Assembly (NCBI GenBank): GCA_964465575.1
Contig: CAYXIF010000004.1
Location: forward strand, 12,212-76,211
Origin: an uncultured Candidatus Bathyarchaeia archaeon
GTDB lineage: Archaea > Thermoproteota > Bathyarchaeia > Bathyarchaeales > DTEX01
DNA length: 64,000 nucleotides
Reading direction: 5' to 3'
The translations under genes and the position numbers were made by a program. Shown in pieces: positions 2,554-42,411 of the stretch; the stretch's first letter is position 1, and each line of letters opens with the position of its first letter. Under the pieces are notes generated by a model. That model did no database searches. It was given only the letters and a program-made list of their open reading frames with translations, and was not told where the DNA came from.

Positions 2554-3252
2554 TCAAGATGAGTATTGTGCCACTGCTGTCGCATGGGCCTTGTCATAAG
2601 GCTCAAGAAAGATGACTTCGGAGATCATGAATCCATTTTCCCGCAGAACGCCGATCTCCCGTCTATAGACTTCTGATGGCTCTTCTGTGACGTCGATGCT
2701 TCTCGCTTTCACCACGAGCATTGCCCAACCTTTCTTCCTAAGGAATAGCTCTGCGTTGCTGACGAGGATTCGAGCCTGTTCGGGTTGAGCGACGTCGCAG
2801 TACACAGCATCCACCTTCCCTACGAGCATCGAGTATTTTCTCGGGACCCTTGCATCAGCAAGTATTGGTGTCATGTTTGCACGGAACTTGCAGACGTTGT
2901 CTATGAGATCGCGAATAGATCGAGGCGAAAACTCCACGCAGTAAACAAGTCCTTGCTCGCCAACAATGTCGGAAACATGGCTAGCTGTCGTTCCAGAGGC
3001 TGCCCCGAGATACAGAACCTTGTAACCTAGTTGGATAGGGAGGTGCGTCAGCCCCTTCAAGACTGCAGCCGCGAGTTTACTTCGGAAGGGGTCCCAGAGC
3101 CTATACTCAACATCCTCGACATTGAGCAGCTGTTCCCCGTAGACGATTCTTCCGGGAGCGACGTTCTTGGTTGCGAGCCTTTGCGACCCGTCCTCAAACG
3201 TGACGCGGTAGACATCATCGAACTGGGGATGCCGTTCAACCCTTACGCCCAT
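2554..3252 (-). CDS. flpA: Fibrillarin (C/D box sRNP 2'-O-methyltransferase)
   Basis: YRLWDPFRSKLAAA and SAM-binding LYLGAASGTTASHVSDIV motifs. Immediately downstream of and overlapping Nop5, the canonical archaeal nop5-flpA operon. Confidence 0.95.
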   Translation of the reverse strand: MGVRVERHPQFDDVYRVTFEDGSQRLATKNVAPGRIVYGEQLLNVEDVEYRLWDPFRSKLAAAVLKGLTHLPIQLGYKVLYLGAASGTTASHVSDIVGEQGLVYCVEFSPRSIRDLIDNVCKFRANMTPILADARVPRKYSMLVGKVDAVYCDVAQPEQARILVSNAELFLRKKGWAMLVVKARSIDVTEEPSEVYRREIGVLRENGFMISEVIFLEPYDKAHATAVAQYSS

Positions 3253-4450
3253 ATTTCTTCCTTCTTCTATGAGATGACTTTAGTTGTGCCCTAGGCTTGG
3301 GTTCAGCATGCTTCTTCCACATTTCCTCAATTCGCTTCCGCAGGTCTTCTTTTAGTCTGTCGCCGACAAGGTTGCCGCTGAAGGCGTCGGTCCTTACCGC
3401 AATCGAAAGTTTGCCCGCTAAGGCTCTGGCGACCTTGCCTCTAAGCCAACGTTTAGAGCCATGGACAAGAGGATGCTGGAAGATTATGCCATGCTTAGGG
3501 GGACGAGCGCCTGTCGTCAACGATCTGAAAAGAGCTTTCTCTGCACCCAACACCTGTATCGTGCTCGCAGGCCTCTTGGCCAAGTTTCCTATTCCGCCTG
3601 CAATGGCTATCAGTCTTGCTCCCAACGTTGCTCCTGCCAGGGCACGTGTGTTAGGTGCAGCTTCCTTCATAACTTCATCGAGGTACATCTCCAGTTTGGA
3701 TCTTGCGCCATACAACTCCAGAGATTGTCCACACAAGATCTGGATCTGCTCCATGTCTACGTCGTAGAAGTCGGCGCCCATTGAGGTCCTCGCAGCTTTG
3801 GCGAGCTGCACCGCCTTGTTCTTCGGCACGTTCTGTTTCTCAATGTTCTCCTCTGTGAAACCGTCTTTCCTGCCGAGATCGCGAACGAGTCTGGCGTAGA
3901 TTTCATGTTTCTCAAGAAGCCTATCAAGCTCTGGGAAATGAAGACCATACCATTCGCGTATGCGACTCATCAACAGATTCAGGGTCTTGTCTAACTCATC
4001 CAGCGCTTGAACAGCCTGCACAATCAACACGTCCCTTTTCTCAGCTGCCCTTCGCACCTTGATCTTGGATATCTCCATCGAGACGTCATGGACCCACTTG
4101 CTCAATTCAAGAGCGGATTCAAGGAAACCTGCCTCAACAGCGTATCTCGCCAGATTCTCACGCAAGGCTTCGGCGAATCTCGAAGGCGCCTCAACCTCAG
4201 TAACTACTTTTAACTCCTTTCTGACAGCTTGGGCCATCTCTGGATTCTCAAACACGAAACTGCTGTAGCCTCTCTCTTCTAGGTTCTTGACCAGAACCAC
4301 AATCTCGTTGATAGCTCTCCCAGACTCGACTTCAATGAGTCTTTCAGCTACCTTCAAAGTATCCTTAGGAAACAGAATCTTCTCAACTAGCTTCCCGTCT
4401 TCGCCGAAGCTGAAGACTCCCACAACCGACGGGACGATGGTTGCTTTCAA
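3236..4450 (-). CDS. nop5: Nop56/58 (Nop5) C/D box sRNP core protein
   Basis: NOP-domain motifs VLGAEKALFR and PKHGIIFQHP, plus a basic C-terminal tail. 17-nt overlap with the flpA start. Confidence 0.95.
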   Translation of the reverse strand: MKATIVPSVVGVFSFGEDGKLVEKILFPKDTLKVAERLIEVESGRAINEIVVLVKNLEERGYSSFVFENPEMAQAVRKELKVVTEVEAPSRFAEALRENLARYAVEAGFLESALELSKWVHDVSMEISKIKVRRAAEKRDVLIVQAVQALDELDKTLNLLMSRIREWYGLHFPELDRLLEKHEIYARLVRDLGRKDGFTEENIEKQNVPKNKAVQLAKAARTSMGADFYDVDMEQIQILCGQSLELYGARSKLEMYLDEVMKEAAPNTRALAGATLGARLIAIAGGIGNLAKRPASTIQVLGAEKALFRSLTTGARPPKHGIIFQHPLVHGSKRWLRGKVARALAGKLSIAVRTDAFSGNLVGDRLKEDLRKRIEEMWKKHAEPKPRAQLKSSHRRRKKYGRKG

Positions 4451-32431: not shown

Positions 32432-33475
32432 ATGTTGCCCACCGCATTTGAGCGAATGTCTCGGCTTCTCGAAGATTTCGTTCAGCTAGAATCGCAAGAT
32501 AGGCGTGTTGCAGGGATCCTTGTTTTTGGCAGCTTCGTCAAGGGGAAGGTACGCGCGACAAGCGACCTTGACCTTCTTGTATTGCACAGGGATATCGATG
32601 AATATTCTAGGACAAGACAGATCAAGAATGGTACATACTTTGAGGTTCACAGATGGCCTCTTGCCACGTTTGCCAGACCGTTTTCTGGCCGGTCTGGAGG
32701 TGCATTTCAGGACGCTTTCTGCTTTGAAGTGATGAGAAATGGACGGATACTATATGACCCGGAAGGGGTCTTGCAGAGGTTCAGGATATACGCCCAGACA
32801 CATAGACTGCCTTTGTCTCATGCAGAATGGTTTGTCCAGAGAGCCCAAAGGAACCTAAGACTTGCAGACAGTCTTCTCAAAGCTGCAGAATTGGAGGGTG
32901 CCGAACTTGAGTTGAGGAAAGCTGCTGAAGAACTTGCTAGAGCCGTACTACTTGAGAACGATGTTCTTGAGTTGATTCCGCCAAAGAACCTTGTTCCTAG
33001 CTTGAGAGATAAGGCTTCAGGTTTCTACGGGACATTTCGGGCAGTTCATAACATAGAGAAGATCGATGTCGAAGATGTAGAAGTAGCCATTCACGAGGTT
33101 TCGCACTGGGTGGACAGAACAGCTGAAGAGATACGCTGTCAAGGCAGACAAGACTTGCTGAAGCTAGGTAGCACAGTCCATGGTTCACGGACCGAACTGC
33201 TTAACGCAAGAGACTGCCTGGAGAATGGAGACATTGAAGCAGCCGTCCTCGAGGTGAGGTACTCAGCGATGCTCTTGGCATCTTTCATTGTCACCATGAT
33301 TCAAGGCTCTGGAAGTGGCTCGCAATCGAGAACCCAAAGTGACAGATATGTTCTGCTAGCTCGAAGCAGCCATCCTTTCGCGGAGACTCTCAAAGCCATC
33401 ATGAATTTCTCACGCGACAAGACCAAGCTCCGCAAGCATATCGATGCCTTGGAGGATGCTGCTGGAAGCCACTAG
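32432..33475 (+). CDS. Nucleotidyltransferase domain fused to helical (HEPN/KNTase_C-like) region
   Basis: GSFVKGKVRATSDLDLLVL minimal NTase motif, followed by about 230 aa of predicted helical repeats. Confidence 0.45.
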   Translation: MLPTAFERMSRLLEDFVQLESQDRRVAGILVFGSFVKGKVRATSDLDLLVLHRDIDEYSRTRQIKNGTYFEVHRWPLATFARPFSGRSGGAFQDAFCFEVMRNGRILYDPEGVLQRFRIYAQTHRLPLSHAEWFVQRAQRNLRLADSLLKAAELEGAELELRKAAEELARAVLLENDVLELIPPKNLVPSLRDKASGFYGTFRAVHNIEKIDVEDVEVAIHEVSHWVDRTAEEIRCQGRQDLLKLGSTVHGSRTELLNARDCLENGDIEAAVLEVRYSAMLLASFIVTMIQGSGSGSQSRTQSDRYVLLARSSHPFAETLKAIMNFSRDKTKLRKHIDALEDAAGSH

Positions 33476-35602: not shown

Positions 35603-36283
35603 GTGAGCATTTTGCCGCTCAAGATTGACCTTCACGTTCATACGAGCTACTCTCACGACTGCCTGACAAGCCTCGATAGCGTGATCTCTTTTGCACAGAA
35701 ACGACGCTTAAACGGTGTTTCCATAGCAGATCATGATACAATTGAAGGCGCTCTAAGACTCCTAGAGATGGCGGGCACAGGGTTGATCATAATCCCAGGG
35801 ATCGAGGTGTCAACAAGCCAAGGGCACCTACTGGGCATCAATGTTACCACGCCAATCCCTCGGGGACTTAGCATAGTGGAAACCGCTGCCAGAATACACG
35901 AAGCCGGCGGTATTGCTGTCGCTGCTCACCCGTCTTCGCCATTCAAACATGCTATAGGCCTTGACGAACGACTCATCTCATACGGTGTGGACGCGGTTGA
36001 GACTGTCAATTCAACGAATTTCCCGTTCTTTCTACTGAACTACTTGGACAAGCGGCTCGCCAGACGCACAGGGCTTCCGGTGACTGGAGGAAGCGACGCC
36101 CACTTACCTGAGGCCATAGGACTAGGCTACACTTTGATAGATGAAACGGGAACTGAAACAGACATTGACGCTGTGGTCCAAGCCATCAAGAGGGGAAGGT
36201 GCGTTCCCATTGGTAGGCCAATGCCGTGGAGACTGAGGCTGCGGAAGATTACACTAATGAGCAGTAAGCCTCCTGCGCACTAG
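35603..36283 (+). CDS. PHP-domain metal-dependent phosphoesterase
   Basis: IDLHVHTSYSHDC, ADHDT and GGSDAH motifs. Confidence 0.75.
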   Translation: MSILPLKIDLHVHTSYSHDCLTSLDSVISFAQKRRLNGVSIADHDTIEGALRLLEMAGTGLIIIPGIEVSTSQGHLLGINVTTPIPRGLSIVETAARIHEAGGIAVAAHPSSPFKHAIGLDERLISYGVDAVETVNSTNFPFFLLNYLDKRLARRTGLPVTGGSDAHLPEAIGLGYTLIDETGTETDIDAVVQAIKRGRCVPIGRPMPWRLRLRKITLMSSKPPAH

Positions 36284-37380
36284 AGCTGGTACAGGCCTAG
36301 GTCCATGGTTAGGGGCTTCACAGTTTCTTCGGCGGCATCCAACTCGTAGATCTCGGGTACAGCTGAACCGTATCCGCCGTACACGTACTGGGATCGGACC
36401 CCAGTCATGACGAGCGTGACTTTCAGGTTTCCCGCTAGGCTTGGGTCGACTCTGGCCCCCCAGATGATCAGAGCATCATCGCTCATCATTTGGGTAACGA
36501 TTTCGCCTACTCTATTGGCTTCGTCTATGGTCATCTGCTCGTCGCCTGAAACGTGGATTAAAGCTCCTTTCGCGCAGGTATAGTCGACATCTAGCAAAGG
36601 CATGTCCAAAGCTTTCTGCACTGCTTCTTCGGCTCTGTTGGGCGCGTCTGATTGCCCCACACCAGCCACAGATATGCCACCCTTCTTTACGATTGTTCTG
36701 AAATCCGCGAAGTCTAGGTTTATCAAGCTCGGCGCGGAAACTATCTCAGTGATTCCCGCGATCATGTTCGCCAAGACACCGTCCCCAACTCTGAAGGCTT
36801 CATTTAGCGGCAGCTGTGGAACGAGACGTATCAGCTTGTTGTTATCTATCACTATGACAGTGTCACATTCCCTTCGCATTTCGGTAAGCCCCTTAACGGC
36901 GTAGGCGATCCTTCCCTTTTCAATCTTGAAAGGCATTGTTACAACCCCGATGACAATGGCCGCCTTGTCCCTAGCCATCCTAGCAACAACAGACGCGGCA
37001 CCTGTGCCAGTCCCACCTCCCATGCCAGCTGTGACGAAGACTATGTCCACATCCTCCAGAACTTTTCCAACTAGCTCAGCGGACTCCTCAATCGCTGCCC
37101 TTCCAACGCGAGGGTCTCCACCTGAACCCAGTCCACGTGTTAGCTTTTCTCCAATCAGGATCTTCTGCTTCGCGTGTGTGGCTTTCAAGTGTTGCATATC
37201 AGTATTGATGGCGATGCATTCAGCGCCCACAATATTGGACTCAGTCAGACGACTCACCGTGTTGTTTCCCGCCCCCCCAACGCCCAGAACCATTATCCGA
37301 CAGGAGCCGGGCTCCCGAAGCCCTTCAGGGATCGTCTCGTCCCACGTGAATTGCAGCGCCTTGTCAGCTATCTTTGTCAT
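36280..37380 (-). CDS. ftsZ: Cell division GTPase FtsZ (canonical motifs)
   Basis: VLGVGGAGNNTV, tubulin signature AGMGGGTGTGA and T7 loop NLDFADF. ATG 37380 (MTKIADK) is preferred over the track start at 37410. Confidence 0.93.
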   Translation of the reverse strand: MTKIADKALQFTWDETIPEGLREPGSCRIMVLGVGGAGNNTVSRLTESNIVGAECIAINTDMQHLKATHAKQKILIGEKLTRGLGSGGDPRVGRAAIEESAELVGKVLEDVDIVFVTAGMGGGTGTGAASVVARMARDKAAIVIGVVTMPFKIEKGRIAYAVKGLTEMRRECDTVIVIDNNKLIRLVPQLPLNEAFRVGDGVLANMIAGITEIVSAPSLINLDFADFRTIVKKGGISVAGVGQSDAPNRAEEAVQKALDMPLLDVDYTCAKGALIHVSGDEQMTIDEANRVGEIVTQMMSDDALIIWGARVDPSLAGNLKVTLVMTGVRSQYVYGGYGSAVPEIYELDAAEETVKPLTMDLGLYQL

Positions 37381-37528
37381 CCTTTTCCCTTCCCCATAGC
37401 TCCATGGCAATCAAGTCCCTGATGGCCACGCGGATAGCTTCCGCTCTATGCGGATAGTACCGCTTGTTCACCAGCTCCTCGAGTGCCTCCAAGTATGGTT
37501 CGGGAAGATATATTGTGATGAGTTTCAC
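37364..37528 (-). CDS. Small ribbon-helix-helix (CopG/CdrS-like) DNA-binding protein, overlaps ftsZ start
   Basis: Not in ORF track (54 aa). Own translation from GTG 37528, with GGTGAG RBS at 37531-37537: VKLITIYLPEPYLEALEELVNKRYYPHRAEAIRVAIRDLIAMELWGREKDDKDS. Classic RHH pattern (beta strand ITIYLP, then two helices). Stop TGA at 37364-37366, 17 nt inside ftsZ. Confidence 0.65.
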   Translation of the reverse strand: MKLITIYLPEPYLEALEELVNKRYYPHRAEAIRVAIRDLIAMELWGREKDDKDS

Positions 37529-37580
37529 TCTCTCACCTACGGACTATAAGTCAAACAGATGGCAATAAGTGTCTGCATAA

Positions 37581-37610
37581 CATGATTTAATCATGATTCA
37601 ATCATGAATG
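37581..37610. promoter_or_regulatory. Three CATGA(T/A)T repeats at 11-bp phasing upstream of the RHH-ftsZ operon
   Basis: catgatttaatcatgattcaatcatgaatg: CATGA begins at 37581, 37592 and 37603. Internally palindromic (TCATGA). Lies between the TATA-like ctttataaag (37619-37628) and the RHH start. Confidence 0.5.
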
Positions 37611-37749
37611 AACCTTCCCTTTATAAAGTTGCACCGAGATAGGCCACTACACCCTCCTCTTTTATGTAAAAAAGGCACGATCGATCCAAATCGTTTTCTC
37701 TTAACGCTACAACTCCGGCGCTTAGAGTGCGCAGTCAAGTATATATATC

Positions 37750-39126
37750 GTGCCCGCATGGATTTGCTTGATAAGGTTGGTCCCTGATGTATTTTCAAGC
37801 GTTCAAGGGTTGTCGAACGCTTCCTCTGCGGAGTGTCCCGCCGCTGGTCTGTTCTATGTAGAGAATTACGGGTGCGCAGCCAACTCCTTTGATCTAGGTG
37901 TTATAAACGCCCTCTTGATCAATGCGGGATACCGGCCGGTCAGTAGGCCTGATCAGGCAAGTGTCGTTGTCGTGAATACCTGCGGGGTGAAGAAACCTAC
38001 TGAGGACAGGATCATTGGAAGAATACGACTCCTCAACCAAATCAACAAACCTCTGGTGATTGCAGGTTGTCTTCCAAAGATCAACTTGGAAGCTGTGCTG
38101 AGAGCAGCACCAAACTTCTCTGCCATCCTTGACCCTTGGAGCGTCGATAAGATACTCTTAGCCGTGGAAGAAGCTGTCAGCGGTGGGAAGAATAGGATAT
38201 ACTTCTCTCAAAAGCCCATCCAGAAGTTGGACCAGCCTAGAATGCGGCTCAACTCTACAATCGAGATCGTGCAAGTCTCTGAAGGATGTACCCGCGCCTG
38301 TGCCTTCTGCTGTGTAAGGCTTGCCAGAGGCGCGCTTTTCTCCTATCCAGTAGAGAAGATAGTTCGAAGGATCACTCAAGCAGTCTCGGAGGGCGCGAAC
38401 GAGGTTTGGCTCACTTCCCAGGACAATGGAGCTTACGGTCTAGACATCGGCACCAATATCGCTGAGTTGCTCTACCAGTGTTGCCAAGTCGCGGGGAAGT
38501 TTCTGATCCGAGTCGGCATGATGAATCCTGACCATGTACTTGGGATGCTTCCTGAGCTAGTCCGCGCATACAAGCAAAAGAAAGTTTTCAAGTTCTTGCA
38601 TGTGCCTATTCAAAGCGGCGACGACGAGACATTGAAGCGCATGAACCGTGGTTACACTGTTGATGAGTTCGAAACGATAGTCAACTCGTTCAGGGAGGTC
38701 ATTCCCCGGATAACTCTTTCCACAGACGTCATATGTGGATTCCCCGGAGAGGGCCGGGAAGCCTTTGGGGAGACTCTAAAGATAATCAATAAAACAAAGC
38801 CTGACATAGTCAACATTTCAAAGTTCTTTCCAAGACCAAACACGCCTGCAGAGAAGATGGAGCGCGTCGACCCAAAAGAGGTGAAGGACAGAAGCCGGGA
38901 GCTAACCAAGCTGGCAAGAGAGATTTCTTCCCAAAGAAACAGGACCTGGCTGGGTTGGGAGGGCGAGATGCTCGTCGACGAGAAAGGGAAGGATTTCACG
39001 TGGGTTGGGAGAAACTTTGCCTACAAACCAGTAGTGGTGAAGAGCGATGAGAACCTGGCTGGGAAGTTTGTGCGTGCAAGGGTCGTTGAGTTCTTCTCGA
39101 CCTATCTTGGAGCCGTGGTCACTTAG
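37750..39126 (+). CDS. Radical-SAM methylthiotransferase, MiaB/MtaB (CDKAL1-like) family
   Basis: MTTase N-domain Cys (YGCAANSFD, NTCGVK, AGCLP), radical SAM CTRACAFC and a C-terminal TRAM-like segment. The true start is probably downstream (for example TTG 37810), because a TATA box (gtatatatat) abuts 37750. Confidence 0.8.
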   Translation: MPAWICLIRLVPDVFSSVQGLSNASSAECPAAGLFYVENYGCAANSFDLGVINALLINAGYRPVSRPDQASVVVVNTCGVKKPTEDRIIGRIRLLNQINKPLVIAGCLPKINLEAVLRAAPNFSAILDPWSVDKILLAVEEAVSGGKNRIYFSQKPIQKLDQPRMRLNSTIEIVQVSEGCTRACAFCCVRLARGALFSYPVEKIVRRITQAVSEGANEVWLTSQDNGAYGLDIGTNIAELLYQCCQVAGKFLIRVGMMNPDHVLGMLPELVRAYKQKKVFKFLHVPIQSGDDETLKRMNRGYTVDEFETIVNSFREVIPRITLSTDVICGFPGEGREAFGETLKIINKTKPDIVNISKFFPRPNTPAEKMERVDPKEVKDRSRELTKLAREISSQRNRTWLGWEGEMLVDEKGKDFTWVGRNFAYKPVVVKSDENLAGKFVRARVVEFFSTYLGAVVT

Positions 39127-40267: not shown

Positions 40268-41329
40268 TCAATGGGAGAAACCTTGCCGAAGTGTATTGAA
40301 CGAGGCTGGACCCTCTAGTAGGAACCTGCTACCCACGCCTGCCAGCACCAATGTCACACGAATGAAACCCGTCATGCTTGTGTCCACTCCGGTACCCCAT
40401 GAAACGTTGGCGTCAGGTGAAATCCTGCTCACGATCATCTCTCCTGCTTTGTTAAACTCCTCTAAGGTCATGTCGTCTCCCCCTTCAATGTTAACCAAGG
40501 CGGCTTGGCATTTGTCTATGTCTTCGATGTCGAGAAGCTGGGAGTCCAACGCTTTATGCACAGCGTCTTCAACCCTAGTCTGTCCTGAGCCTTCTCCTAT
40601 GCCCATGGCGCATACTCCACTTTCAGTCGCGATCGCCTTCAAGTCCGCGAAGTTCAAGTTCACAAGGCTTGGGTAAGATATTGCCTCCGATAGGCTTCTG
40701 ATGAAAGAAGCAATCAGATTGTTCGCGAGACCGAAAGATTCGATGATGGGCAAGTTGCCTGCGATTTTCCTAAGCCTATTATTATCAACGACGATGACAG
40801 CGTCACAGGTCTCGACGAGCCGCTCCAATCCTTTCTTGGCCTTTGCCAGCCTCGGTCCCTCAGCTAAGAAGGGAATCAAAACGACTCCAAAGGTCAGAAC
40901 CTGCATTTCCTTCGCGATCGTCGCCACAACGGGAGTAGCACCAGTCCCTGTTCCTCTCCCTAGTCCTGCAATCAGAAAGGACAGACCAGATCCTTTCAGC
41001 ACACTTGCTATTTCGATTGAACTTTCTCCTGCAACCCTTGCCCCTAGCTCTGGAGAGTCACCGCAACCAAGACCCCGACAGACATCGTATCCTAACAAGA
41101 TTTTCCTGTCGGCTGCAATCCTGCTCAGTTGCATGGCGTCGCTGTTCAATGCGTAGATTCTTGCGCCAAAGACGCCTTTTTCTTTGATCCAAGAAGCAAT
41201 ATTGCATCCCGCTCCTCCAATGCCCAGTACACTGATACGAGGGATAGACTCTGTGGCTATTTCCTCTATGCTCTTCTCACAGAATGCCTTGTCCCGGACT
41301 ATACTGGGTTCCTTGAGCTGTTCCGCCAA
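40268..41329 (-). CDS. FtsZ/tubulin-family paralog with degenerate GTPase motifs
   Basis: VLGIGGAGCNIASWI. The G-box reads AGLGRGTGTGA (Arg at codon 40955-40957) and the T7 loop reads NLNFADL (Asn at 40652-40654) instead of NxDFAD. Confidence 0.8.
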   Translation of the reverse strand: MAEQLKEPSIVRDKAFCEKSIEEIATESIPRISVLGIGGAGCNIASWIKEKGVFGARIYALNSDAMQLSRIAADRKILLGYDVCRGLGCGDSPELGARVAGESSIEIASVLKGSGLSFLIAGLGRGTGTGATPVVATIAKEMQVLTFGVVLIPFLAEGPRLAKAKKGLERLVETCDAVIVVDNNRLRKIAGNLPIIESFGLANNLIASFIRSLSEAISYPSLVNLNFADLKAIATESGVCAMGIGEGSGQTRVEDAVHKALDSQLLDIEDIDKCQAALVNIEGGDDMTLEEFNKAGEMIVSRISPDANVSWGTGVDTSMTGFIRVTLVLAGVGSRFLLEGPASFNTLRQGFSH

Positions 41330-41523
41330 TTCTTGCCCACGCTCTTAGCATTTGATCTGAAGAAGCCTTCCCAGTTCTGCCAGCCTAAGATTCGGTTCAG
41401 AAAGGGATAAAGCTTTTGGGGTGTCTAACGGAGCTTGCGGTTCGCTACTACTCAGAATTCCTGGCCTGCAGCACAAACCTTTCAAACCGGTGGAGTGATT
41501 ATCTCACGGGGTTGGACGAAGCA

Positions 41524-42411
41524 ATGATCGGAATCTTGACGCGCAACGAAGGATCTTGGTGTTCTGCCCAATTGAGGAAGGCATTCACTAGACAAGGAGT
41601 CCCGTCGATGTGTTTTGGCTTTCCTAGCCTCGTGGCTCGTGTTGCGCTCAGGCCTGAAGTCTCAGTTGCAGAGACCGATGTTCTCAAGGAACTCGAAGCT
41701 GTGATCGTGCGACCAGTGGGACGCGGGTCCTTGGAAGAGATCATTTTCCGGATGGATCTTCTTCATCGACTCGAACGGTTAGGCACTTACGTGGTAAACC
41801 CGCCTTCAGCTATTGAACGGTCGGTTGACAAGTACTATACTCTTGCGCTTCTTGAGGAAGCGGGCCTCGCTGTCCCTCGAACAGTTGTAGCTGAAGACGC
41901 TGATAACGCCCTGAAGGCATTCGAAGAGCTAGGAGGCGATGTTGTAGTCAAGCCCATTTTCGGCTCGCGCGGCATTGGCTCAGTGAGAGTCTCTGAGCCC
42001 AACTTGGCTGAAAGAGTCTTCAGAGCAGTTGCTTTTCAGCATCAAGTCCTGTACATTCAAGAATTCGTTCCACATGGGAACTACGATGTGCGAATCTTCG
42101 TTCTAGGCAGACGAGTCCTGGCGTCCATGCGAAGAATAGCCGACTCATGGAAGACCAACGTGAGTCTCGGCGCAAAGCCCGTTGCTTACAGGCCACAAAG
42201 CAAAGTCAGAAAGCTAGCTCTTAAAGCCACGGAGATCATCGGCTGCGAGATAGCTGGGGTAGATGTCTTGGAGACTGAGAAAGGTCCTTTGGTGATCGAG
42301 CTCAATAGTCAGCCGGGCTGGAAAGGTCTTCAATCCGTTACTGAAGTGAACATAGCGGACGAGATAGTCAGATACATGCTCGATAGACTTAAGGCGAAGG
42401 TAAAGCGATGA
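41524..42411 (+). CDS. RimK-family ATP-grasp alpha-L-glutamate ligase (MptN/CofF-like)
   Basis: ATP-grasp blocks VVKPIFGSRGIGS, IQEFV, DVRIFVLG and AGVDVLE. ATG 41524 (MIGILTR) is preferred over the track start. Confidence 0.7.
   Translation: MIGILTRNEGSWCSAQLRKAFTRQGVPSMCFGFPSLVARVALRPEVSVAETDVLKELEAVIVRPVGRGSLEEIIFRMDLLHRLERLGTYVVNPPSAIERSVDKYYTLALLEEAGLAVPRTVVAEDADNALKAFEELGGDVVVKPIFGSRGIGSVRVSEPNLAERVFRAVAFQHQVLYIQEFVPHGNYDVRIFVLGRRVLASMRRIADSWKTNVSLGAKPVAYRPQSKVRKLALKATEIIGCEIAGVDVLETEKGPLVIELNSQPGWKGLQSVTEVNIADEIVRYMLDRLKAKVKR

Follow-up and report, generated by a model that had tools for sequence, protein, structure and literature searches.

An 11-bp-phased repeat array at the cdrS-ftsZ promoter of the Bathyarchaeia as a candidate operator

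Introduction

What is known about how archaea control their cell division comes from two regulators only, CdrS of the haloarchaea and aCcr1 of the Sulfolobales, both of them from cultured models. The Bathyarchaeia are abundant, largely uncultured sediment archaea without genetics. In a 64-kb stretch of DNA from a member of this class (the whole stretch is referred to as the window), three CATGA motifs with a spacing of 11 bp precede a small gene encoding a protein of the ribbon-helix-helix (RHH) type related to CdrS, which is followed by ftsZ. The locus raises the question whether this array is a regulatory element of the division operon and, if so, how it acts and which protein binds it. An inspection of the letters without any comparison (the sequence-only reading) had taken the array for an autoregulatory operator.

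As judged from sequence comparison, the array belongs to the cdrS(-ftsZ) promoter as a cis-element and is conserved throughout the class Bathyarchaeia. It is very likely a functional cis-regulatory DNA element, and it probably serves as a repressor operator. The earlier proposal is supported with regard to conservation, fixed position, specificity for cdrS, and placement in the promoter. Its autoregulatory part is argued from gene linkage and the usual behaviour of RHH proteins, and autorepression by CdrS through the array is therefore put forward tentatively, at a probability of roughly 0.47.

Results and discussion

The repeat array in the window

On the plus strand the array reads catgatttaatcatgattcaatcatgaatg (37581-37610), with CATGA starting at 37581, 37592, and 37603, i.e., with a spacing of 11 bp. 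Tandem Repeats Finder assigns to it a period of 11 with 2.5 copies, 93% matches, and a score of 47. The pattern CATGA-N6-CATGA-N6-CATGA occurs at a single locus in the 64 kb, with 0.02 occurrences expected (100 shuffles, none of which equalled the observed count). The CATGA triplet and its spacing, as claimed by the sequence-only reading, are thus borne out by the coordinates, by Tandem Repeats Finder, and by the shuffles. The TATA-like sequence ctttataaag (37619-37628), likewise described before, is indeed a perfect palindrome. It is situated upstream of the array relative to the relevant genes, which are encoded on the minus strand throughout.

Read in gene direction (37607-37575), the array consists of the units TCATGATTGAA, TCATGATTAAA, and TCATGTTATGC, the middle one of which is enclosed by the perfect 10-bp palindrome AATCATGATT (37589-37598). 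The palindrome TCATGA, which had been attributed to each unit and given emphasis, is found in two of the three units (37591-37596 and 37602-37607), and the first copy reads ACATGA (37580-37585). Compared to the orthologs, TCATGA turned out to be a variant specific to the window; the conserved core is CAT(G/A)TTT.

Conservation across the Bathyarchaeia

The set retrieved by protein similarity comprises the window and 26 loci with a locatable TATA box, down to 69-71% CdrS identity. The 11-bp-phased array is present in all 27 of these TATA-anchored upstream regions, which align without gaps from the TATA box. In these regions CAT occurs at +20, +31, and +42 from the TATA box, and the CAT of unit 2 is found in 24 of them. 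The ortholog consensus is a.aGAAAa.TTTATAAG-(spacer)-CATGTTTgAAtCATaTTT..atCATatTATAtAc.TATTTA. Mean pairwise identity amounts to 0.61 for the three-unit block and 0.62 for the TATA box together with the B recognition element (BRE), compared to 0.33 further upstream and 0.30 in the remainder of the leader. The information content of the alignment columns shows maximal autocorrelation at lag 11 (r=0.48, 27 orthologs). With a matrix of the 33-bp block from which the window had been left out, 37575-37607 (minus strand) scores 41.1 bits, and the next unrelated site in the 64 kb reaches 3.2 bits. Including 47-49 further promoters among the listed matches of a DNA pattern scan (see below), the array is present in at least ~75 orthologous promoters. 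It is hence conserved upstream of orthologous RHH-ftsZ loci, the point on which the sequence-only reading had made its proposal depend.

The pooled unit is AATCAT(G/A)TTTn, which corresponds to a half-degenerate palindrome AAnCATGnTT centred between CA and TG. Over the 27 orthologs this symmetry is partial, with symmetric A/T flanks of unit 2 in 19-20 of them and a symmetric C..G pair in 10-17. The 4-nt spacers between the cores vary freely (e.g., GGGG, GCCA, and AAAA). The distance from the TATA box to CAT, which was not contained in the search pattern, is 19-21 in 40 of the 45 listed metagenome promoters, the other five being without a TATA match. In the 45 cdrS-linked promoters among the matches listed, array and start codon are 76 to 93 nt apart. 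Due to the fixed distance to the TATA box and the variable distance to the start codon, we conclude that the array is placed by the promoter and not by the ribosome binding site.

These observations also bear on the trivial explanation that the array is a chance or replication-slippage tandem repeat without function. Slippage does give rise to short repeats with a period of 11 and 2.5 copies, and the listed scan matches that are not associated with cdrS are mostly microsatellite-like. Nevertheless, this explanation is hardly conceivable and can be regarded as refuted, since the register is kept in at least ~75 promoters while the flanks have dropped to 0.30-0.33 identity and FtsZ has diverged down to ~50-65%.

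Promoter anatomy and the predicted start site

In gene direction the promoter is composed of ggtgcaac-TTTATAAA-gggaaggttcat-TCATGATTGAA-TCATGATTAAA-TCATGTTATGC-agacacttattgcc ... GGTGA ... GTG, and the architecture shared with the orthologs is BRE/TATA, a 13-nt spacer, and three AAnCAT(G/A)TTT units. The elements, from upstream to downstream, are as follows.

37660-37673, minus strand: upstream conserved element TTTTTTACATAAAA, ~42 nt upstream of the TATA box; ortholog consensus TTTTACAT(G/A)AAT
37619-37634, minus strand: core promoter of cdrS-ftsZ, consisting of a weak BRE (gtgcaac) and the TATA box TTTATAAA (37627-37620)
37597-37607, minus strand: unit 1, TCATGATTGAA, predicted ~-10 to +1; the C of CAT lies 20 bp from the first T of TTATAA
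37586-37596, minus strand: unit 2, TCATGATTAAA, predicted ~+2 to +12, located in the palindrome AATCATGATT
37575-37585, minus strand: unit 3, TCATGTTATGC, predicted ~+13 to +23; ortholog consensus tCATatTATAt
37561-37574, minus strand: eroded fourth conserved block AGACACTTATTGCC, which reads ACACGTATTTATG in the clade of the window and ATAGAAGTATAAC in the larger clade

The TATA box is palindromic, and it is considered to face cdrS because a purine-rich BRE is present on the cdrS side only. Synteny does not separate an assignment of the array to cdrS from one to the divergent MiaB-like gene, since both genes are neighbours in every Bathyarchaeia locus. The orientation of the array was therefore derived from the side of the BRE and from the fixed TATA spacing. 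Archaeal TATA boxes are commonly centred near -26/-27. Following this usual geometry, transcription is predicted to start at ~37597-37599, probably at the GAA end of unit 1, and units 1-3 would therefore span ~-10 to +23.

The fourth block, which differs in sequence from the three units and occurs in most relatives, shows an identity of 0.51 among the orthologs, and the copy of the window seems to be 2-3 nt shorter than the consensus of its clade. The element at 37660-37673 may, judging by its letters, represent an additional unit of the array, either isolated or inverted. The clade of L018-L023 lacks this element and carries an 11-nt deletion at this position.

The placement of the units brings up the possibility that no dedicated regulator is involved and that the block reflects constraints on the core promoter and the leader, i.e., a promoter-proximal AT-rich element, an initiator, the initially transcribed sequence, and a leader motif, the latter being an unstructured motif of the 5' leader that acts on mRNA stability or translation. 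Unit 1 is indeed located where promoter-proximal or initiator elements are expected, units 2 and 3 would be transcribed, and the region is AT-rich in a genome of ~51% GC. We consider this explanation quite unlikely, since a 7-mer core that occurs three times at an exact 11-bp period is not expected of a pre-initiation complex or a leader. Furthermore, the TATA distance is fixed and that to the start codon has a range of 17 nt, no other promoter with an array was found in ~620 kb of Bathyarchaeia DNA, and a consensus RNA structure was not obtained.

With respect to the latter, RNAalifold predicted 0 consensus pairs for 24 leaders, the leader of the window folds no better than its shuffled versions (z=-0.32), and Rfam yielded no match at E<=1. 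On these grounds an RNA-level element or riboswitch was rejected. A series of alternative TATA boxes was rejected as well, given that the core CAT(G/A)TTT is combined with free 4-nt spacers, some of which are GC-rich.

Specificity of the array and its association with cdrS

A metagenome-wide exact scan with the pattern CATRWWT-N4-CATRWTT-N4-CATRWTAT matched at least 80 loci. Among the 80 matches listed, 47 are directly followed by an open reading frame (ORF) for CdrS (E no worse than 4e-28), and two are contig ends that were cut just past the array and have equal TATA spacing. None of the remaining 31 listed matches has a BRE/TATA at -20; most of them are AT-rich microsatellite-like repeats.

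Scans of Bathyarchaeia DNA with a two-unit matrix (288 kb and 334 kb, ~620 kb altogether) gave strong matches at all cdrS promoters. In the 288 kb nothing above 17.2 bits was found outside the cdrS promoters, and in the 334 kb there was one off-target match of at least 15 bits. This match (L129, ~4372-4393, minus strand, 21.4 bits) lies between genes for RNase HII and an AbrB/SpoVT-like protein and overlaps the TATA-like sequence TTTATATTTAAG. Its geometry differs from that of the array, and it is probably a chance occurrence. Within the window, lone copies of ATCATGAAT occur at 33398-33406 and 2624-2632 (plus strand), one of them ~130 bp upstream of the MetRS start; these are isolated copies and not arrays.

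A division regulon sharing the array and visible locally was rejected: the array was found neither upstream of the second ftsZ paralog (41330-41720) nor elsewhere in the window, and the ~620 kb contain the single off-target match. Beyond the ~620 kb of Bathyarchaeia DNA scanned, a wider regulon may exist.

In several lineages, the array precedes cdrS also where ftsZ has shrunk to an ORF of 96-99 aa corresponding to FtsZ residues 282-366. Since the array is kept where only a remnant of ftsZ is left, it evidently travels with cdrS.

The subset of Bathyarchaeia in question possesses cdrS with TATA box, array, and the divergent MiaB-like gene, yet no full-length ftsZ behind it. It comprises the loci L053 (2096-2386), L048 (2863-3162), L055, L065, L068, L069, L070, L076, L098, L100, L106, L109, L112, and L113. 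In case of L053 and L048, the 96-99-aa ORF is located behind cdrS, and the ORF of L053 aligns to FtsZ 282-366 with E=3e-8. Both ORFs retain the C-terminal DLxLYQ tail and resemble a 'mini-FtsZ' without GTPase domain.

Genes of the locus

The genes and gene-associated signals of the locus are given below.

37533-37537, minus strand: GGTGA, similar to a Shine-Dalgarno sequence, 5 nt upstream of the GTG start codon, invariant in the ortholog alignment
37364-37528, minus strand: cdrS-like gene with GTG start, encoding a 54-aa RHH protein (MKLITIYLPEPYLEAL...)
36280-37380, minus strand: ftsZ, 366 aa, with Tubulin and FtsZ_C domains (TIGR00065, 372.9 bits)
37740-37747, plus strand: TATA-like box of the divergent MiaB-like gene, a conserved ATAT.AA column block outside the array
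37810-39126, plus strand: MiaB-like gene (ms2t6A methylthiotransferase), divergent, ~280 bp upstream of cdrS
40268-41329, minus strand: second ftsZ paralog, 3 kb away and without an RHH gene

The 54-aa protein matches Pfam RHH_1 with E=4.5e-8 and 33.2 bits (cut-off 20.5). Its top NCBIfam match is the CdrS model NF058555, a model made for Halobacteria, with E=2.6e-9 and 36.9 bits, which is below the cut-off of 100. By its sequence, the protein is therefore classed as a CdrS-like relative outside the NF058555 equivalog; for convenience its gene is referred to as cdrS. The nearest solved structure is the RHH domain of NikR. The linked FtsZ matched the generic ftsZ model TIGR00065 only. The end of cdrS (37364) overlaps the ATG of ftsZ (37380) by 17 nt, as it does in the orthologs, and due to this overlap of the reading frames we consider both genes an operon.

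A genome scan with the FtsZ protein placed the window in the Bathyarchaeia and yielded 27 Bathyarchaeia loci, 26 of which have kept the RHH gene. Across these 26 loci, CdrS protein identity ranges from 70 to 93%, and the cdrS-ftsZ arrangement as well as the flanking genes recur. FtsZ loci of DPANN and other archaea from the genome scan contain no CdrS ORF. The MiaB-like-B ms2t6A gene is a constant neighbour: it adjoins cdrS in divergent orientation in all Bathyarchaeia loci whose sequence extends to that side. In the Promethearchaeota (L028, 2250-3581; L050, 1018-2340) and in L186, a MiaB-like gene adjoins cdrS as well, in this case in the same direction.

Mode of action and candidate binders

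In the mechanism that we favour, small two-fold-symmetric protein dimers would occupy successive units cooperatively on one face of the helix. BRE and TATA box would still be open to TBP and TFB, and the recruitment of RNA polymerase or the opening of the promoter would be blocked, resulting in repression of the operon. The binder would be CdrS, the product of the first gene of the operon, and this negative feedback would steady the levels of CdrS and FtsZ. CdrS is the leading candidate because it is encoded by the sole regulator gene conserved at the locus and is followed by the array even without ftsZ. In addition, RHH proteins commonly autoregulate from tandem subsites, and CATGTT-type boxes are found in the promoters of a paralog described below. 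A paper of 2025 reports that CdrS regulates its own expression (PMC12699388).

Several points weigh against autorepression by CdrS. In the chromatin immunoprecipitation sequencing of Haloferax CdrS, 18 sites are listed, none of them at its own promoter, and most of these sites have an activator-like location, 41-110 nt upstream of start sites (PMC8406309). In Halobacterium, another RHH protein, CdrL, binds upstream of cdrS (PMC7439475), and loss of cdrS causes no rise of ftsZ2 expression but lowers it 1.3-2.2-fold. The start site in the window is a predicted one, and the conservation of unit 1 could partly be a constraint of the core promoter. The beta-strand MKLIT[IL]YLP of CdrS is invariant across the Bathyarchaeia set, so that covariation between protein and operator is uninformative here, and a comparison across phyla offers too few independent promoters. 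Finally, a stand-alone paralog could be the true binder.

This second CdrS-like RHH paralog of the Bathyarchaeia (MKLVTVLLPEAYLEGLDELVRANMYPSRS...; also given as MKLVTVLLPEAYLEGL...) does not adjoin ftsZ. Just past the TATA box, its promoters carry CATGTT-type boxes at a density of 1-2 per 80 bp compared to ~0.1 expected. The respective loci are L171-L181 (boxes of L175 at ~2440-2500 and of L171 at ~2455-2480), and L175 has two boxes 11 bp apart.

Accordingly, the array might be the operator of a protein other than the linked CdrS, either this paralog as an analogue of CdrL or an unlinked cell-cycle regulator, which would repress from the same position. Conservation, phasing, and anchoring to the promoter fit such a protein equally well. 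The occupation of the Halobacterium cdrS promoter by CdrL rather than CdrS, the CATGTT boxes of the Bathyarchaeia paralog promoters, and the failure to detect Haloferax CdrS at its own promoter point in the same direction. We regard another binder as unlikely, though worth serious attention, for no regulator gene besides cdrS is conserved at the locus, the array tracks cdrS even after loss of ftsZ, and a linked gene would be the simplest partner of a dedicated single-site operator. The paralog, in turn, is known from Bathyarchaeia loci other than the window.

A further alternative concerns the sign of the regulation. CdrS on the array could be an activator or an architectural factor that provides positive feedback, as is thought for haloarchaeal CdrS on ftsZ2. 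The 1.3-2.2-fold decrease of ftsZ2 upon deletion of cdrS in Halobacterium would be in agreement with this, as would the description of Haloferax CdrS as an activator (PMC9976892) and the possible extra conserved unit ~42 nt upstream of the TATA box. Positive feedback is nonetheless improbable: in those archaeal systems that have been studied, the RHH protein aCcr1 among them, sites from the TATA box to +23 belong to repressors, whereas the activator sites in Haloferax are found 41-110 nt upstream of the start site.

If CdrS does bind the array, a CdrS operator would for the first time be defined at the promoter of cdrS itself, and this would provide evidence for negative feedback on the FtsZ2 operon in lineages without CdrL. 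In the literature searched we found no description of an operator at the cdrS promoter of the Bathyarchaeia or of a defined CdrS site at its own promoter. A class-wide 33-bp element on the predicted start makes division control approachable with a 54-aa protein and 60 bp of DNA, without culturing, and with its motif the division regulon could be mapped in metagenome-assembled genomes.

Comparison with known systems

The cdrS-ftsZ arrangement has been described for Halobacterium and Haloferax, and synteny was reported across archaea including the Bathyarchaeota (PMC7439475, PMC8406309). Similar to the window, haloarchaeal cdrS-ftsZ2 has a small RHH gene that immediately precedes an ftsZ paralog and is co-transcribed with it. 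The promoters differ. No operator has been defined for the cdrS promoter of the haloarchaea, and CdrL, which is restricted to the Halobacteria, was found there, whereas in the window a three-unit array covers the predicted start. The CdrS sites of Haloferax, in turn, are located upstream of promoters and act positively, in contrast to the array over the predicted start. The CdrS motif of Haloferax is available as a figure only.

The aCcr1-box (AGTATTA) of the Sulfolobales cdvA promoter resembles the array in that its position is conserved across the order (PMC9976878, PMC9976892). It represses by blocking of the pre-initiation complex, and the array would act in a comparable way. In contrast to the aCcr1-box, the target in the window would be the operon of the regulator itself and an FtsZ-based system, and there are three phased units instead of one or two. 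The seed GTATTA/TAATAC is absent from the intergenic region 37529-37809 and occurs once in the whole window. Membership of the array in the aCcr1-box was rejected on the absence of the seed from this region.

The RHH operators of bacteria and phages consist of short tandem or inverted subsites, each contacted by the beta-ribbon of one dimer, with cooperative binding and a spacing of up to about one helical turn. They overlap the promoter from which the RHH protein's own operon is transcribed. Known examples are the operators of Arc/Mnt, the met-boxes of MetJ, those of CopG and omega, and the GTATGA half-sites of NikR, and the array would work in a similar way. A subsite spacing of 11 bp, a location in the core promoter, and conservation upstream of orthologs are all found for the array. 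The NikR half-site TCATAC presumably can be likened to TCATAT and TCATGA, a resemblance that we take as a lead only. Different from the bacterial operators, the array is part of an archaeal TBP/TFB promoter, and the blocked step would be polymerase recruitment instead of sigma-70 binding.

The archaeal repressors MDR1, Phr, LrpA, TrmB, and NrpR have their operators over or just downstream of the start and leave BRE and TATA box free. The placement of the array is alike, but these repressors are helix-turn-helix or winged-helix proteins with unrelated motifs.

The parC site of plasmid R1 is made up of 11-bp iterons to which an RHH protein binds. Like the window, the ParR-parC system combines an RHH protein with 11-bp direct repeats that precede its operon and with a downstream gene for a filament-forming NTPase. 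By this formal likeness of an RHH gene, a cytomotive-filament gene, and 11-bp direct repeats, the array could be thought of as a centromere-like site, at which CdrS on the iterons couples DNA to FtsZ in the manner of ParR-parC-ParM or TubR-tubC-TubZ. We consider this highly improbable. ParR-parC comprises about ten iterons flanking the promoter, is plasmid-borne, and operates with the actin-like ParM. In contrast, the window contains 3-4 units on a chromosome next to a division FtsZ, and instead of a large segrosome-forming parC-type iteron array (~10 x 11 bp) three units and, in the relatives, one differing fourth block were found. Furthermore, loci in which ftsZ is missing or left as a C-terminal remnant retain the array, and the roles of FtsZ2 in division and of CdrS in transcription are established (PMC7439475, PMC8406309).

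Boxes at other archaeal cdrS promoters

There are hints from sequence that boxes at the own promoter are a general feature of the CdrS family with lineage-specific sequence, although the number of independent promoters is small. It is tempting to speculate that RHH proteins of the CdrS family were ancestrally tied to their own promoters via lineage-specific 7-mer boxes 11 bp apart, which in the Bathyarchaeia would be the three CAT(G/A)TTT copies over the start site. In this view CdrS and aCcr1, the regulators of FtsZ-based and ESCRT-based division, would go back to a single autoregulated RHH-box circuit older than the divergence of the archaeal division systems; we regard this scenario as doubtful.

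In the Promethearchaeota (Asgard), the cdrS-ftsZ promoters exhibit two exact AGTATTA boxes 11 bp apart, directly upstream of the TATA-like sequence GCTATTTAAGG. In L028 these boxes are located at 3678-3696, and in L050 and L051 at the equivalent position, 66-77 nt upstream of the ATG. The metagenome-assembled genome L186, which is labelled Thermoprotei, shows synteny to the window for its MiaB-like, cdrS, PHP, and MetRS genes and has no ftsZ. Upstream of its cdrS (~1914-1945), a 20-bp palindrome GGTATTACCGCGGTAATACC contains the aCcr1 seed. In the Thorarchaeota, the promoters carry GGTATTAC or its complement; GGTATTAC or GGTAATAC was observed ~55 nt upstream of the cdrS-like genes (L182, L184 ~1940-1975).

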